Of a stretch of DNA of 64,000 nt, positions 12,001 through 33,000 are shown in pieces. The stretch is from Planctomycetota bacterium (lineage in GTDB: Bacteria > Planctomycetota > UBA8108 > UBA1146), in the NCBI GenBank assembly GCA_036338595.1, contig JAYZBV010000077.1:1-64000 (forward strand), read 5' to 3'. Position numbers: made by a program. Positions within the stretch are counted from its first letter, which is position 1; every line of letters begins with the position of its first letter.

Positions 12001-15000
12001 TTACTCGTGGCACCGTGGGATCCCTATCGTGCCGTGATCCTGCTCGGTGTGTTGCTGGCGATGGGCGCAGGATTTCTCGATGACTGCAGTCCAGATGCCT
12101 GGGGCAGGTTGAGCAAGGGACTCATCGACCTGTTCATCTCGATGGGTGTGGCGTGGGCGATGATCGGCGGAGAGTCCAGCATGGAGATCTGGCTACCCTT
12201 CTTTGCACCGAAGATGGGGCAAGAGGCGTTGCTCGATGGAACCGCCGGGATGCTGGCACCGATCCTCTGCGAGCCGTGGTTGTACGGAGTGATGGCCACG
12301 ATGCTTCTCTGGTTCTCCATCAATACCACCAACTGTACCGATGGGGTCGATGGACTCTCAGGTAGTTTGCTGGCGCTCGCTTTTCTCTGCCTCGGTGGGG
12401 TCCTGTACGGGGTTGTCGGGCATGTTGACTCTGCCCACTACTTGTTGGTGCCCTTCTACGAGGATGGAGCCAGTTGGGCTGTCATCGTCGCAACGACACT
12501 GGGTACTCTCGCCGCCTACCTCTGGTTCAATGCATATCCTTCTCAGTTGTTGATGGGAGATGCGGGTTCGCGCGCCCTCGGACTTCTTCTGGGCGTCTTC
12601 GTGCTGGCGACGGGGAATCCATTCCTGCTGCTGGTTGTGGCACTGCTGATCCTCGCCAATGGGGGCACAGGGTTGTTCAAGGTCGGATTCATCAAGTTCC
12701 TTCGCATCCGCGTCCTCGAGAGTATTCGCTGCCCGCTTCACGATCATGTCAGGGAGAACTGGGGCTGGTCCAACACCCAGGTGCTGGTGCGATTCGTGAT
12801 CTTGCAAGCGGTGATGGCGCCGATGCTGATCGTGATCCTGTTGAAGGTACGCTGACGCGCAACTCCTATTTGATGTGCTCGCCAGATCTTGATGGAGCGG
12901 GTTGGTCTCGAATCATTATTGGCACAGATCCACGATGGTACGGATCCACGCTGGAATCGCGCCGACTTCCGGACAAAAAAAGCCCCCGGACGCTGAGCGT
13001 CCGGGGGCTTTTTCAGGTGACCTGCGGTCGGTTCTAGTAATCGACCTGACGGAAGGTTCCACCGTTCATGGCGGCGAGGTTGACGTAAAACTGCTCTTCA
13101 CCGGTGTAGAAGGAACTGGTGAAGTAGATGGTGTGAACCGGCAGGTTTTCGAAGTTGGCTGCCGTGATCGACTCCATGCAGATGTCAGCGTAGTTGCCTC
13201 CACCCGATCCGTTGCAGTACGGCTCACGGGCTCCGCAGATGATGACCTGCTTGTGAGCTCCCGGAGCTTGCTGGGCGAGGCCGAGGCCAGCCAGCGCTGC
13301 ATCGAGAAGACAATGGTTCTCTATCGGAGCCAGGGTGCCGAGCCAGGCCTGCGCCGAAGCCTTGTGCGGTGCCGAGGCGTGACAGCATTCCGGACGCCAG
13401 ATGTAGGTTGTGGAGTTGTATGCGACGATCGCAAAATCTACAGACGCCGATAACTGGTTCAGGGTCGCAGAAACTTCCTGGCGGATCATGTCGAAGATGA
13501 CGGTCTCTCCGCAGAAGCCATACGCAGGAACGATGAAGACGAAGCAGTCTCCCTCGAACTCACTACCGTAGAAGCGGATCGCTTCCGGGGCATCTTCTTC
13601 ATCATCGTCCTCACCCGCTCCACCCGCTGGAAGATCCAGAGGCTTACGCGCTGCTCCGATATCGTCTGCAGAGTAGACGGTGCCAATGGCCACCGGAGCA
13701 AAGATGAACAGCAAGGCGATCAGTAAAATGCCGCGAGTTTGCTTCGACAAATCGAGCCTCCTCTCGAGAGGGGTCTTCCCGGATCAACCGACTTGAGTCG
13801 TCCGGCATCCTGAAGGACGCCAGCAAGCCAGAATTCCCCCATGGAATCTCTGGGACATACCGTGCCCTCTCGGTTACGGCCCCAGTGTACGGGAGGGTGC
13901 CAGAATTTGCCACTACTAGTCAGGAGCCCACCTCTTGTGCCCTGGGAGGGGTGGGTTTACCGTTGGGTGGCTTACCATGAGAGTGCTGGAATCGCTCCAG
14001 GTGAGCCCATCCTGGACACATTCGGGCTAAATTGCCCTGAGGAGAGCTCTGCATGATTAATGTTCCCATCCCGGTCACTGTTTCCCGTCGGGTGCTGGTC
14101 CTGATGCTGATGGTGGGGGTCCTGCTGATTCCCGGGCTATCGTTTGGCGTCCAGGATGGCGAGGAAGAGGTCGAGAATCCGTCTGCCAAGGCAGTCTGGA
14201 AGGTCGACCGTGTGCGTGGAGCTGAGTCAGTCCAGTACGAGGTAACGATTTTTCAGATCCCGGCTCCCGGTGGAAATCGCTGGGTTTGGCGAGCCATCGC
14301 TTCCGACGGGAGTTACCCGGGTGGATTCCCCATTGGATCGATGCTGATCCAGGGCAGTGGCAATCCTCGCCCGGAACTGTTTGATCCGCTTTCTCCCGGA
14401 GTGATGGAGATGTTGCTCTCTGTTCACGGCGCAGGATCCCAGGGGGAGGGGCTCGGCTGGGCCGATGGAACCTCGATTGGCCTGAGGCGTCAGATTCCCG
14501 TCGAGCGCACCGAAACGATGGATGCCGAGGGCAGAGTGACTCAGGTCGGAGTTCTTGCCGGGGGTACGACGCAGATCCGAGGCGGTTCCCGGGCTCTGAA
14601 GTTGAGCGAGTTCCAGGAGACGCTGCTGCTCGGGACAGGCGGTTCCCTGAAACAGGCCGAATGGACCGCGACCCTGCTACGGGGAAGCGAGGAATCTGTC
14701 ACCACCGAGAAGCGGGTTCTGCGAGTCGAACGCCTCGAGGCGGGGCTGATCGAGGAAGAGGAATCGAAGCAAGTTCAGGAAGGTTACGAGTTCCTGGCTC
14801 CTGTGGTGCGCGTGCTTCGAAAGGGGATGTCACTGGCAGCGGTGGAACTTGCCGAGACGATGTTCGAGAAGGGACGTAAGGACCACAAGCGAGGACCTCT
14901 TGGCGAGGTCGTGGAAGAAGTGGCCAGTCTTCTCAAAACGAGCAAGAAGGTCGCTTCGCAGCCCCTCGATCCAGATGTTCGAGCCAGGAAGATGTTTGGA

Positions 15001-30000: not shown

Positions 30001-33000
30001 GGTGACTGGTGAGGGCCCTGTCGGGCGATGTACCCACACGAGCGGTCGCTCGTGGAGAAGCACCCTGCAGATCAGTTTGCCATCGTCGGAGTCAACTCGG
30101 AGAGTTCCGTCGAGGCCGCACGAGATGCAGTGAAGAAGAACAATCTGACCTGGAAGAACTTCTACGATGGTGGAACCAGCGGCGCCATCTCGACACGATG
30201 GAATGTCAGCGGCTGGCCCACCACATACGTGATCGATTCCTCTGGAGTCATCCGATACAAAGATGTTCGTGGTGATGATCTTGACGAAGCGATCGAGGCT
30301 TTACTGGCCGAGATGAATGCTCGCAAAGATGAAGAGGGAACTCGCTAGGGACCGACCGGGATGGCCATGATCGACCGGGCCACCTGTCTGCTGATTCCGA
30401 GACGGCTGCCATCGATTTCGATGATGCAGGTACCGCTCGCCTGGCAGATGTGGAGATCGCAGTCGTTGCAGAGTCCCATCGCCTCGAGCAGAGGGCGGTG
30501 AGTCGAAGGCAGTGAATCGGTGACCAGTCGGACGCGCTGGCCACGCTCCATCGACATCAAGCACCGCACTTCGGCGCCGGCTTCGGAGCCACGGGGGGAC
30601 ATGTCGGGGGACTTGTCCGAGTCGGATGGACCGGAATCGAGCGGCGATATCGGGCTCGTCTCTGCCAGGACACCTCGAAACATCAGTTTCTCCCTGTGAG
30701 GGGCTCGTCAGCGATAAATCGCCACCGGACACCTGTAGCATGTTGATTGTCTTGCAGCGCTGGTGCCGCTACCCTGCTCCGATACCGGACCGGAACCGAT
30801 GTGGCGACCTCGGCGGCAGTGTAGCGATCTGTTTGCACCCCCGTCAACATGTTTGGGTTGCCAAACTCATCGAGTTCGATGGGCCGATTTGAGCCCAGGA
30901 AGAGCCCAGGAAGAGCTCGGGAGAAGCATCTGGCGACGGAAACAGGGGAAGTATGGAGGTGTGGTGAGCGACTGGCGAGAATTTGACCAGAACCCGGTGA
31001 GCCACTCTGCTGCGCATCATCTGACCACCATCGGTGATCTTCACGACGAGGTGGGATACGCACGCGTTTCCGATGTAGCGAGGCATCTCGGGATCACCCG
31101 CGGCAGCGTCTCCGTGACCCTCAAGGGACTGCGTCATCGCGGGCTGGTGGTGGAGGATGAGCACAAGCATCTGAGCCTCTCGGCAGAGGGCCAGCGCATC
31201 GCTCGCGGGATTCGCACGAAAAGGATCCTGATCCAGGCGCTCTTTCGCGATGTGCTGGGGGTTCCCGACGAGATCGCTGAACAGGACGCGTGCAAGATTG
31301 AACACCTCATCAGCGACCTGACTGCGGAGGCGGCCGCTTCACTACTGGAAGGTCTGGAGGAGACGAGCGAGACCGGACGGATTCAATCGTTGCTGAAATC
31401 GGCGCGAAGTTCCACCGACGCTTCCTCTCCCTTCCCTGGTACTGCAACTCAGCAGATTGCGGACCGCCTCCTGAAAAAAGCAGTTGAAATCGAGAGTGAG
31501 GACTCATGAGTTCGAAGATAACCCGTGAAGAAACCATCGCCAGGCTCAACGCACTGCTCGCTGAAGAGCTGGAAGCGTCGATTCGTTACCTTCATCTCGG
31601 CTCGATGGTTCAGGGGATCGATCGCCTGATCGTTCAAAAAATACTTCAAGAAAACCACGAGGAGACGGTAGAGCATGCTCAGCAGATCAGCGAAAAGATC
31701 TTGCAACTCGGAGGCAATCCTACGCCCAGGATCCAGTTGAATCTCGACGGCAAGAGGTATTCTGGACAGCAGGCGATTGCAGAGGCGCTGCTCTTTGAAC
31801 AGGCAGCCCTCGATGGCTATCGCGATCTGCTGGAGCAGGTGGATGCCAGCGGAGATGTGGTGCTCGAGGAGTTCGCGAGACAACAGGTTGCTGTCGAATC
31901 CGAGCATGTCTCTCAACTGCAGATGCTGCTGGTGGAGTCGCCTGTTGGCGATCAGTGACCGCCCCGGGGGGATGACCTCTCTCGCTTTCCTGAATGGATT
32001 TTTTGCACTTGCCAGCGTCGGCCCGGCGCTGGGGCGAATCATCAATTCATACAACCTGCAGTCATACATCCAGGATCCCGAGCAAACCCGTGGACGCTGG
32101 CTCCGAGTGGAGATGCAATCCCTACTCGATGCGCAGGTTGCCCCATTTCATCTGCAGTGGCTTGGCGTGCTCGGTGTTGTGGTGACCTTGTTGCTCGTCA
32201 TCTCGGTGGTGGGATTGTTGAAGCGATCCCGTTGGGCAGGAAAGTGGTGTTCGACACTGGCTGCGCTGGGGATGATATCGGTTTCACTGCTGGCGCTGAA
32301 GATTCTGCCAGATGACGAGTTGCGGGCGGTGGGAATGGATCTGGTGAGGCAGTTGTTCTACCCGCTGTTTCTGTTGTTCATGGTGCAGGTGATCTTTCGT
32401 AAGGATCTGGGGAAGCGATGAGTCGTATTTCTCAAATACTCCTTCATGCTCGAAACTCGATGTCCCATTCGCTTCGATCAGGGTCGGGGATTGCCTTCAT
32501 CGTATTGACGATGATGACGGGGTTGGGAGTCGCCAGCCTGGTATTCATGCCCATCGAGTTGGAGATGATCACCCCAGAAGAGTTCAGAAATAGTGCTGCC
32601 CAGGCAGTGGGCTTCTTTCTCGCCATGGCGACGCTGCAGGGGGGAACCTTCAATACCATCTCGCAGCGGATGGAGGCGGGAGACCTGGTCGAACTGGCGA
32701 CCTGGGGGAGATACCTGGTGCTGGACCATCCGGTGCTGCTGTCATTGACGGTGTTGCTACTGGGTCTGCTGCTTCCGATCCTGCTTCCACTCGGTTCTTT
32801 TGCTTCCATATCGGGTGATGTCCAGCATCGCTCGATCCGATACCTGTTACCGAGAACAACCCGAACATCGCTGCTGCTGGGTCGGCTGCTGGGAGCATTG
32901 GTGCTTTCCTGGACCCTGATCACCCTGCTTCAGGGAGCCATCGTCTTGTACCTGGGTATCGTGTTGCCCCTCGATGGCTGGAGTGAGCTGGTGCCGTGGG

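Follow-up and report, generated by a model that had tools for sequence, protein, structure and literature searches.

Three in-frame TGA codons in the 64,000-nucleotide stretch of a planctomycete contig analysed here (the window) most probably encode selenocysteine (Sec) through ordinary bacterial decoding, and the same would hold for about twenty further genes of its genome, a 2.9 Mb bin of 114 contigs (completeness 88.3 %, contamination 7.2 %). In the proposed mechanism, SelD would provide selenophosphate, SelA would convert Ser-tRNA(Sec) to Sec-tRNA(Sec), and SelB, by binding a small mRNA hairpin just downstream of the UGA, would deliver Sec-tRNA(Sec) to the ribosome. The products of genes 1 and 3 are predicted to be extracytoplasmic TlpA/ResA-type thiol-disulfide oxidoreductases and that of gene 2 a Thioredoxin_7-type protein, with Sec probably taking the place of the attacking Cys, the first in CxxC, in all three window proteins (UxxC). 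We infer that Sec is actually inserted and that the Sec oxidoreductases would act as reductases outside the cytoplasm, with DsbD, a membrane electron conduit which in this genome is a selenoprotein too, as their likely source of electrons. The Sec trait appears to be common to the whole family of small-genome planctomycetes that includes the host genome.

Selenoprotein genes in the window

The presence of the three loci, as described in an earlier note on this genome, was confirmed, and all three are located on the forward strand. Gene 1 (14053–15414, with its true stop, TGA, at 15412–15414) encodes an N-terminal hydrophobic segment, a domain of approximately 300 amino acids without a Pfam match and a C-terminal TlpA/ResA-like thioredoxin fold. 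Its putative Sec codon (15103–15105) falls in frame within the active site FWGYS-U-GIC, and the Pfam domains AhpC-TSA (85.8 bits, residues 316–431) and Redoxin (79.1 bits) both cross U351. Orthologues with one TGA are found in 24/24 same-family genomes, the position of the TGA is identical in 10/10 orthologues read, and Cys occupies the site in distant homologues (ACKEC, GCGPC).

Gene 2 (20134–20730) encodes a Thioredoxin_7 (DsbH/DsbD-gamma-like) domain followed by a helical C-terminal part, and no hydrophobic segment was seen by eye at the N-terminus of its translation. The domain (Pfam; 38 bits, residues 8–91) crosses U35, corresponding to the in-frame TGA at 20236–20238 (APG-U-LGC). One-TGA orthologues occur in 23/24 same-family genomes and 4/5 genomes of a second family, again with the TGA at an identical position in the ten that were read. 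Since the orthologue alignments begin at residue 5–7, the second ATG may be the true start of this gene.

Gene 3 (29194–30348) encodes an N-terminus resembling a signal peptide, a domain that is all-helical in the model (residues 38–234) and a TlpA/ResA-like thioredoxin fold, with the in-frame TGA at 30010–30012 (FWGDW-U-GPC) and the Pfam domains AhpC-TSA (65.1 bits, residues 282–400) and Thioredoxin_8 (56 bits) crossing U318. Its AlphaFold model (mean pLDDT 88.6) was matched by Foldseek to ResA, CcmG and Etrx2 (target TM 0.78–0.88) and to TlpA (0.58–0.63). In 22/24 same-family genomes the TGA is present in the best match, the exceptions being a Cys form (G009) and a match that ends short of the site (G011), and the TGA position is identical in 10/10 orthologues read. 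Of 20 aligned sequences, at least 90 % have Cys in the Sec column, in a display where U is itself shown as C, and Cys forms of the site read WCGES and WCEPS. A paralogue is encoded on another contig (C38:8861-9958).

It could be argued that these TGAs are real stops, each separating two genes or leaving a truncated protein and an untranslated remnant. Public gene callers give just such calls: the closest public relatives of gene 3 are "hypothetical proteins" of 269–300 amino acids that span only the part before the TGA, as expected from the earlier note's claim that these genes are miscalled, and gene callers cut Sec genes short because a "stop" codon is used for selenocysteine. Single-TGA same-frame neighbours are, furthermore, common in the genome (582 relaxed candidates), and 12/19 other TGA-bridged pairs tested were plainly two genes with different domains on each side. 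However, in none of these 19 controls did a domain cross the TGA, whereas a single Pfam domain extends over each of the window TGAs, which coincide exactly with the first cysteine of CxxC. The parts downstream are in frame and conserved in relatives to approximately 35 % identity, and a hexamer coding score, for which 1451 long ORFs from the same genome served as training set, is above zero on both sides of each TGA, with the other five frames negative or far lower. In gene 1 the first in-frame start past the TGA lies 22 codons downstream (15169), so that a restart there would drop the active site. Real stops are thus highly improbable, and selenocysteine remains the preferred reading of the three codons.

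Hairpins downstream of the TGA codons

Each TGA is followed by a SECIS-like hairpin on the same strand. In gene 1 this comprises a 7-bp stem (GUGCGGA-GUC-UCCGCAC; 15116–15132) starting 10 nt past the codon, in gene 2 an 8-bp stem with one G.U pair (CUGGAUGC-CGUGAC-GUAUCCAG; 20254–20275) starting 15 nt past it, and in gene 3 a 7-bp stem (CACGAGC-GGUC-GCUCGUG; 30037–30054) starting 24 nt past it. All 17 nt of the gene 1 hairpin are unchanged across 10/10 orthologues, that of gene 3 is likewise unchanged in 10/10 and has the same sequence in the C38 paralogue, while a single G-to-A change in the inner stem was observed among ten orthologues of gene 2. At codons whose residue is invariant, synonymous change was found in 0/6 within the hairpin versus 16/19 outside it for gene 1, 1/7 versus 17/18 for gene 2 and 0/6 versus 20/24 for gene 3, or 1/19 versus 53/61 flanking codons when the three genes are pooled (residue invariant in ten orthologues). 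With the hairpins being near-invariant, no compensatory base changes that would prove pairing occur among the ten orthologues read.

The SECIS of Escherichia coli fdhF is a hairpin within the coding sequence shortly past the UGA whose apical loop contains G and U, and the bSECIS model places the loop 16–37 nt after the UGA. The window hairpins likewise lie in the coding sequence close behind the UGA and contain both bases in the loop, and their loops (GUC, CGUGAC and GGUC), at 17, 23 and 31 nt past the codon in genes 1, 2 and 3, respectively, fall within this range. They differ in having short, perfect, G+C-rich stems and loops of 3–6 nt, with no bulged U seen and no Rfam family at gathering score in the window.

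Using a strict hairpin rule (perfect stem of at least 6 bp, GU in the loop), hairpins were found at 18/25 Sec sites in the genome, compared with 59/946 true TGA stops, 98/1380 Cys codons and 112/1451 random in-frame codons, an enrichment that is partly circular as the hairpin rule was the earlier note's own selection criterion. The remaining seven of the 25 sites failed the rule.

Selenocysteine machinery and the genome-wide set

The complete Sec machinery that the earlier note had listed was recovered. It includes a tRNA-SeC (C72 c[32141,32238]) as well as selA (526.5 bits), selB (390.4 bits), selD (348.7 bits, with one in-frame TGA), mnmH (258.9 bits) and yedE (321 bits), all five above their curated cut-offs, with selA, selD and the tRNA-Sec gene adjoining one another on contig C72. 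TGA is also the commonest ordinary stop, with 946 of the 1451 long training ORFs ending in TGA with room downstream; the genetic code is therefore not reassigned. That the window TGAs are instead read as Cys or Trp, via near-cognate or suppressor decoding, is very unlikely given the commonness of TGA as a stop, the dedicated Sec system with its Sec-containing SelD, and the synonymous-constrained hairpins at a SECIS-like distance past the codons. Decoding as Sec would also account for the wider set considered below.

All 25 sites proposed in the genome can be read as a single frame with one internal TGA, and each has independent support. As C21:1-1292 matches C34:48980-50271 at 95 %, the loci C21:3-878 and C34:48880-49857 represent one gene. 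The number of distinct Sec sites is thus 24, including SelD and a locus on C109, or 23 if the partial copy on C93 (77 % nucleotide identity to C33) belongs to a second organism in the bin, so that the earlier estimate of about 24 Sec genes holds. In 12/23 listed loci (SelD and C109 left out), the TGA is crossed by a Pfam domain that reaches the gathering score. Among NCBIfam models, the ArsC-like protein exceeds its cut-off (129 bits versus 85), while the UshA-like PCGU (234 of 275) and OS_HP2/DUF1573 (93.8 of 100) proteins give strong matches that remain below theirs. Matches in other genomes carry the TGA in 16/17 cases for the C57 locus, which the earlier note had rated the weakest, and in 21/21 (C61), 20/24 (C60), 17/20 (C54), 12/12 (C109), 40/41 (C28/C12 family) and 14/15 (DG) cases, counts that are not independent of one another as the relatives are kin. 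The TGA also occurs in most matches of the C79 family, for which a TGA-less paralogue exists.

Recent pseudogene mutations or sequencing and assembly errors might be expected in a bin of 114 contigs with 7.2 % contamination, in which C21/C34 is a strain-level duplicate. This explanation is, however, contradicted by the same TGA in independently assembled genomes from at least seven genera of the family and from outside it, at 35–95 % protein identity, and has a next to negligible probability beside a conserved Sec codon.

The Sec set consists almost entirely of thiol-redox proteins, most of which have N-terminal hydrophobic segments. The earlier note's interpretation, a wholesale switch of exported proteins from Cys to Sec, is as a whole partly supported. 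The switch is not wholesale, with the TGA present in just 4/10 AhpC-TSA, 4/9 Thioredoxin_7 and 3/4 Thioredoxin_8 matches in the genome, and Cys-type members occur in the window itself. For context, these comprise a non-Sec AhpC-TSA-family domain (11004–11360, forward strand; 42 bits) and a Thioredoxin_7 domain with a CGWC motif (37033–37239, reverse strand; 41.7 bits), both translated without an internal stop. Nor does "exported" describe the set as worded, as by eye no N-terminal hydrophobic segment is present in the gene 2 product, MsrB-MsrA, the ArsC-like, SelW-like and DG proteins or SelD; several Sec proteins of this genome look to be cytoplasmic.

Relation to known selenoproteins and selenoproteomes

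The mechanism and most of the protein families are already known; the claim that several families are uncatalogued is not borne out in that form, most being catalogued, as the earlier note granted. Thiol-disulfide isomerase-like and Prx-like UxxC selenoproteins are among those described from marine metagenomes (Zhang, Fomenko & Gladyshev 2005, PMC1088965). The window proteins are similar in having a TlpA-like thioredoxin fold, Sec in first position, a SECIS within the gene and Cys homologues that are widespread, but the window TlpA-like proteins carry an extra N-terminal domain of approximately 230–300 amino acids without a Pfam match (all-helical in the gene 3 model). None of the selenoprotein-specific NCBIfam cut-offs is reached by the window proteins (WAxxUGC_long 49 and 35 bits versus 300). 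The TlpA-like proteins further resemble the extracytoplasmic Cys-type thiol-disulfide reductases ResA (B. subtilis), TlpA (Bradyrhizobium), CcmG/DsbE and Etrx2 in fold, motif position and N-terminal export or anchor segment, and the host genome also codes for an electron donor of the DsbD type. They differ from all four in the Sec predicted in place of the nucleophilic Cys and in the extra N-terminal domain, and gene 1 misses the NCBIfam cut-offs for ResA (93.9 of 170) and TlpA (60.4 of 230).

For planctomycete P1 from Porphyra (8.5 Mb), Table S9 of Kim et al. (2016, PMC4807772) gives ten selenoprotein candidates, each of which had been annotated as a pair of separate genes. Among them are three FG-GAP proteins, two thioredoxins of the thiol-disulfide isomerase-like kind, a peroxiredoxin, an AhpC and an Msr. 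The host genome belongs to the same phylum and shares the thiol-disulfide isomerase-like thioredoxin, peroxiredoxin/AhpC, Msr and FG-GAP kinds, with 23–24 Sec genes in 2.9 Mb versus ten in 8.5 Mb. The earlier statement that Planctomycetota are not known as selenoprotein-rich must be qualified in view of P1, although the passages of PMC4807772 consulted do not present them as such and the phylum is unnamed in the main texts of the selenoprotein reviews and surveys searched. With a selenoproteome considered rich from six genes (Peng 2016), the host genome lies far over the threshold, as do Syntrophobacter fumaroxidans (39), Desulfosediminicola flagellatus (46), the Olavius delta-1 symbiont (57) and a Methylomirabilota MAG (63). 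It has fewer Sec genes than these four anaerobes and combines a thiol-redox set, without formate dehydrogenase among its 23–24 Sec genes, with an encoded haem-copper oxidase, in contrast to their sets, in which enzymes of anaerobic energy metabolism dominate. What is new relative to the literature searched is the selenoprotein richness of such a small-genome planctomycete lineage. Across the phylum, SelB was found in 282/401 sampled Planctomycetota genomes.

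Predicted selenocysteine codons and their conservation in three window genes

Reading TGA as selenocysteine (U) fuses three same-frame pairs of open reading frames in the window, all on the forward strand. Gene 1 (14053-15414) encodes a protein of 453 aa with the sequence ...VAFWGYS-U-GICRAE..., gene 2 (20134-20730) one of 198 aa with ...LEAPG-U-LGCKRLD..., and gene 3 (29194-30348) one of 384 aa with ...LDFWGDW-U-GPCRAMY..., and in each of them U stands for the first Cys of a thioredoxin-type CxxC motif. The TGA codon of gene 1 falls inside the Pfam domains AhpC-TSA (85.8 bits) and Redoxin (79.1 bits), and that of gene 3 inside AhpC-TSA (65.1 bits) and Thioredoxin_8 (56 bits), while U35 of gene 2, in the motif ULGC, lies within the DsbH/DsbD-gamma-like domain Thioredoxin_7 (PF13899; residues 8-91; 38 bits against a gathering score of 27). 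A hexamer coding model, trained on 1451 long open reading frames of the genome (G000), scored both halves of each gene above zero in frame, with the other five frames negative or much lower. On the basis of the coding score and of the Pfam domain over the codon, each gene thus has an in-frame UGA within a continuous coding region. Judged from sequence, all three are predicted bacterial selenoprotein genes that would be translated through standard SelB/SECIS-dependent UGA recoding.

The internal codon is retained among relatives. Exactly one in-frame TGA was observed in the orthologues of gene 1 in 24/24 same-family genomes, and in those of gene 2 in 23/24 same-family and 4/5 neighbouring-family genomes. 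For gene 3, the best matches in 22/24 same-family genomes carry a TGA, the exceptions being one Cys form and one match that ends short of the site. For each gene the TGA occurs at the identical residue in 10/10 orthologues read, and one contig of the closest relative carries all three genes with unchanged spacing. Distant homologues of genes 1 and 3 that lack the TGA incorporate Cys at the Sec column (WCGES, WCEPS, ACKEC, GCGPC). In an alignment of 20 sequences for gene 3, in which U is displayed as C, this column is at least 90 % Cys. For gene 2, a search of 40 relatives yielded no homologue that spans the site and lacks the TGA. In public databases, gene 3 is closest to Planctomycetota 'hypothetical proteins' of 269-300 aa, which have 55-64 % query coverage and no Pfam domain; these public gene calls truncate the gene. 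Full-length Cys forms, sharing 31-36 % identity with gene 3, carry the annotation thiol-disulfide isomerase or TlpA family.

The products of genes 1 and 3 score above Pfam gathering for TlpA-like thioredoxin-fold domains, and the fold is supported by the predicted structure of gene 3 (mean pLDDT 88.6; pTM 0.78). In this model, residues 1-32 are of low confidence and residues 38-234 form an all-helical domain, followed by a thioredoxin fold. Foldseek comparison of this fold gave target TM values of 0.78-0.88 against ResA, CcmG and Etrx2, and of 0.58-0.63 against TlpA; among the matches listed, all were to the C-terminal thioredoxin domain and none to the N-terminal helical domain. NCBIfam equivalog cut-offs were reached by none of the three window proteins. 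Genes 1 and 3, respectively, scored 93.9 and 71.9 bits against ResA (NF002854; cut-off 170 bits), 60.4 and 56.8 bits against TlpA (NF047696; 230 bits) and 49.3 and 35.5 bits against the WAxxUGC ResA-like selenoprotein (NF041054; at least 300 bits), whose motif differs from the FWGYSUGIC and FWGDWUGPC of the window proteins. Gene 2 scored 20.6 bits against the VPGUxxT thioredoxin-like selenoprotein (NF041383; at least 275 bits). By these profile scores, the products of genes 1 and 3 are related, but not orthologous, to ResA and TlpA. Both have an N-terminal hydrophobic segment, as judged by eye; such a segment is absent from the gene 2 product, which may be cytoplasmic.

The genes neighbouring the three Sec genes are unrelated housekeeping and transport genes, including those for IleRS (16701-20081), a proprotein-convertase-domain protein, a DAO oxidoreductase, FeoB (26940-28934) and an iron-dependent (DtxR-type) repressor (30763-31509). 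No selenoprotein operon occurs in the window, the three genes being merely scattered over one region. Gene 3 is located between feoB and the repressor gene.

Probable recoding hairpins and the selenocysteine machinery

All three genes have, 3' of the TGA, a perfect hairpin that is rich in G+C and has G-U in its loop: GUGCGGA-GUC-UCCGCAC in gene 1 (15116-15132), CUGGAUGC-CGUGAC-GUAUCCAG in gene 2 (20254-20275) and CACGAGC-GGUC-GCUCGUG in gene 3 (30037-30054). The home-made hairpin rule of the earlier note, a whole-genome reading that named 25 in-frame TGA sites (selD and a locus on contig C109 included), was made explicit as follows: the stem is perfect, no shorter than 6 bp and includes three or more G-C pairs, and the loop is 3-8 nt long, contains GU and begins 8-44 nt from the U of UGA. 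The rule was passed by 18/25 listed sites, against 59/946 true TGA stops, 98/1380 Cys codons and 112/1451 random in-frame codons (6-8 %). Because the sites had been picked by their hairpins, a separate test of synonymous change was added, using 10 orthologues per window gene and only codons with an invariant amino acid. Synonymous changes were observed in 1/19 codons within the hairpins versus 53/61 in the flanks (genes 1-3), and this suppression indicates that the hairpins are constrained as RNA. No compensatory base changes were seen in the window hairpins among the orthologues read; since the hairpins are so conserved in these orthologues, covariation support was unobtainable and the suppression at synonymous sites was taken instead. 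Comparison of the whole window with Rfam at gathering score returned no matches, and these hairpins thus fall under no curated SECIS family. With domains across the TGA, in-frame coding, hairpins and a TGA conserved in relatives, the three window loci are upheld as very probable selenoprotein genes.

The Sec machinery, which had been described as complete, is indeed so. A tRNA-SeC was detected with ARAGORN on contig C72, adjoined by selA (526.5 bits) and by selD (348.7 bits), which contains one in-frame TGA, while selB is encoded on C108 (390.4 bits), mnmH on C113 (258.9 bits) and yedE on C72 (321 bits). The tRNA-Sec, SelA, SelB and SelD are thus all present, all above curated cut-offs. An alternative in which TGA has been reassigned genome-wide was rejected, as TGA is the usual stop of G000 and the code is therefore not reassigned.

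The genes selA, selD and tRNA-Sec form one compact cluster, arranged head to tail on the minus strand (C72:32141-34795), with yedE 26 kb away on the same contig. The Sec codon of selD is accompanied by its own 9-bp hairpin with a GGUCG loop.

The predicted genome-wide selenoprotein set

At each of the 25 listed sites, the sequence could be read as a continuous frame that contains just one internal TGA. When SelD and the C109 locus are set aside, a Pfam domain extends over the TGA at or above gathering in 12/23 loci (the three of the window, which lies on C77, C10, C21, C34, C38, C23, C53:1, C73, C105 and C90) and below gathering in a further four (C28, C12, C57 and C55), with none in the remaining seven. 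NCBIfam matches above cut-off were obtained for the ArsC-like, SelW-like and MsrB-MsrA proteins, and clear matches below cut-off for the UshA-like PCGU, OS_HP2/DUF1573 and DG proteins. Every locus without strong family support was tested in relatives (C57, C61, C60, C79, C54, C109, C28/C12 and the DG protein), and the TGA is kept in nearly all matches which reach the site. Across related genomes, the TGA is kept in all eleven gene families searched there. The count of at least 24 genes given in the earlier note needs slight adjustment. The sites themselves stand, but C21 and C34 represent one gene, as their contig ends overlap at 95 % identity, while C93 shares 77 % nucleotide identity with C33 and is thus a paralogue or derives from a second organism, leaving 23-24 distinct genes, each site having at least one independent line of support. 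By the definition of Peng et al. 2016, six or more selenoprotein genes make an organism selenoprotein-rich, a threshold which the 23-24 distinct sites of G000 exceed; approximately 1 % of the genes in this 2.9-Mb genome encode selenoproteins.

A strict coding-potential scan of G000 yielded 99 TGA-bridged candidates and recovered 20/25 listed sites, the other five being missed because of a weak coding score near the hairpin or a short upstream part. With relaxed criteria, 582 candidates were obtained. A hairpin accompanies 54 of these, 18 of which are listed sites; the remaining 36 approximate the expectation from the 6-8 % background rate. Nineteen unlisted candidates were chosen by eye from both scans, and in no case did a Pfam domain extend over the TGA. 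In four of them a domain lies on a single side of the codon, and in three there is no domain at all. The other twelve were rejected as plainly two genes (e.g. YicC and guanylate kinase, RuvC and IF-1, Pth and S6). With no domain across the TGA in these candidates, no Sec gene was added to the set, and our own scans of G000 produced no further convincing Sec genes.

Two loci that are 75 % similar, C58:4985-8323 (forward strand) and C107:668-3997 (minus strand), encode an arylsulfotransferase-like exported protein ending in ...C-P-TGA, with a stop-free frame which continues past the TGA into a FAD-binding, halogenase-like domain approximately ten codons on. A hairpin meeting the rule was not found at either locus. 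The TGA could specify a C-terminal Cys-Pro-Sec tail or a fusion through Sec, or the genes could just be adjacent.

Predicted selenocysteine in thiol-redox proteins and across the phylum

The sequence at C53:1-843 (forward strand) encodes the C-terminal thioredoxin domain of a DsbD-like protein, and this contig end overlaps exactly, over 141 nt, with that of C106 (C106:1-2400, minus strand). The joined frame encodes a signal peptide, two DsbD-alpha-like modules and a DsbD membrane domain (DsbD_TM, 92.5 bits), followed by GHT-U-QNC. It thus represents a Sec-containing DsbD, and the protein that probably supplies the periplasmic reductases with electrons would itself be a selenoprotein. In the text of a 2026 review DsbD is named once, within the TsoB fusion family.

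The proposed wholesale switch from Cys to Sec in exported thiol-redox proteins proved partial, with TGA in 4/10 AhpC-TSA, 4/9 Thioredoxin_7 and 3/4 Thioredoxin_8 matches, and some of the selenoproteins appear not to be exported. Nor is the phylum a blank for selenoproteins, as Table S9 of Kim et al. 2016 (PMC4807772) contains ten split-gene selenoprotein candidates in planctomycete P1 and three in P2. The earlier observation is confirmed; its interpretation holds in the central points but goes too far in the peripheral ones. A full-text literature search for selenoproteins or selenocysteine in Planctomycetes or Planctomycetota returned nothing beyond Kim et al. The string 'Planctomyc' is absent from the main texts of the 2026 review, the BSepDB and deep-Sep papers and Peng et al. 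2016, although BSepDB entries and the supplements of Peng 2016 and deep-Sep may list planctomycete selenoproteins. SelB was found above the curated cut-off in 282/401 genomes drawn evenly from the phylum, and in 168/243 high-quality ones, and Sec decoding appears to be the rule, not the exception, in this phylum.

Catalogues have included the families of the window genes since 2004-2005. With both families and recoding mechanism being textbook, each gene alone amounts to a corrected annotation, and it is the lineage as a whole that is of interest. The kind of gene is known and the mechanism is standard SelB/SECIS recoding; what is new is a lineage unusually rich in such genes. According to the 2026 review, the bacteria richest in selenoproteins are predominantly anaerobes, and selenoproteins are rarely retained by aerobic bacteria. 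G000 encodes haem-copper oxidase subunit I (481.9 bits). A tentative reading, which we consider close to evenly balanced but slightly on the doubtful side, is that the Planctomycetota are an unrecognised selenoprotein-rich phylum, that in the small-genome, oxidase-bearing family of G000 the whole extracytoplasmic reducing pathway is Sec-run, with a Sec-DsbD feeding Sec-TlpA-like and Sec-Thioredoxin_7-like proteins, and that no fewer than five families of secreted or membrane selenoproteins (C57, C61, C60, C79 and C109) are without a Pfam or NCBIfam match. If true, phylum-wide richness and a Sec-run pathway would contradict the present picture of large selenoproteomes as a feature of anaerobes. 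Should the pattern hold, thousands of planctomycete genes would be truncated or split in public databases, and selenium supply may be an overlooked need in culturing these bacteria.

In the C60 protein (C60:6772-7749, forward strand), the Sec codon follows a lipobox-like sequence (...SSSLFAQC-U-G) directly past the N-terminal hydrophobic segment, and the TGA is kept in 20/24 matches in other genomes. To judge from this motif, the mature protein may have a lipidated Cys as its first residue and Sec as its second. The C79 family (SGG-U-CIS) occurs in relatives as a tandem cluster of three paralogues, two with the TGA and one without, as in the related genomes G005 (C23:9547-12388) and G003 (C43:246041-248836); in G000 the cluster is interrupted by the contig start.
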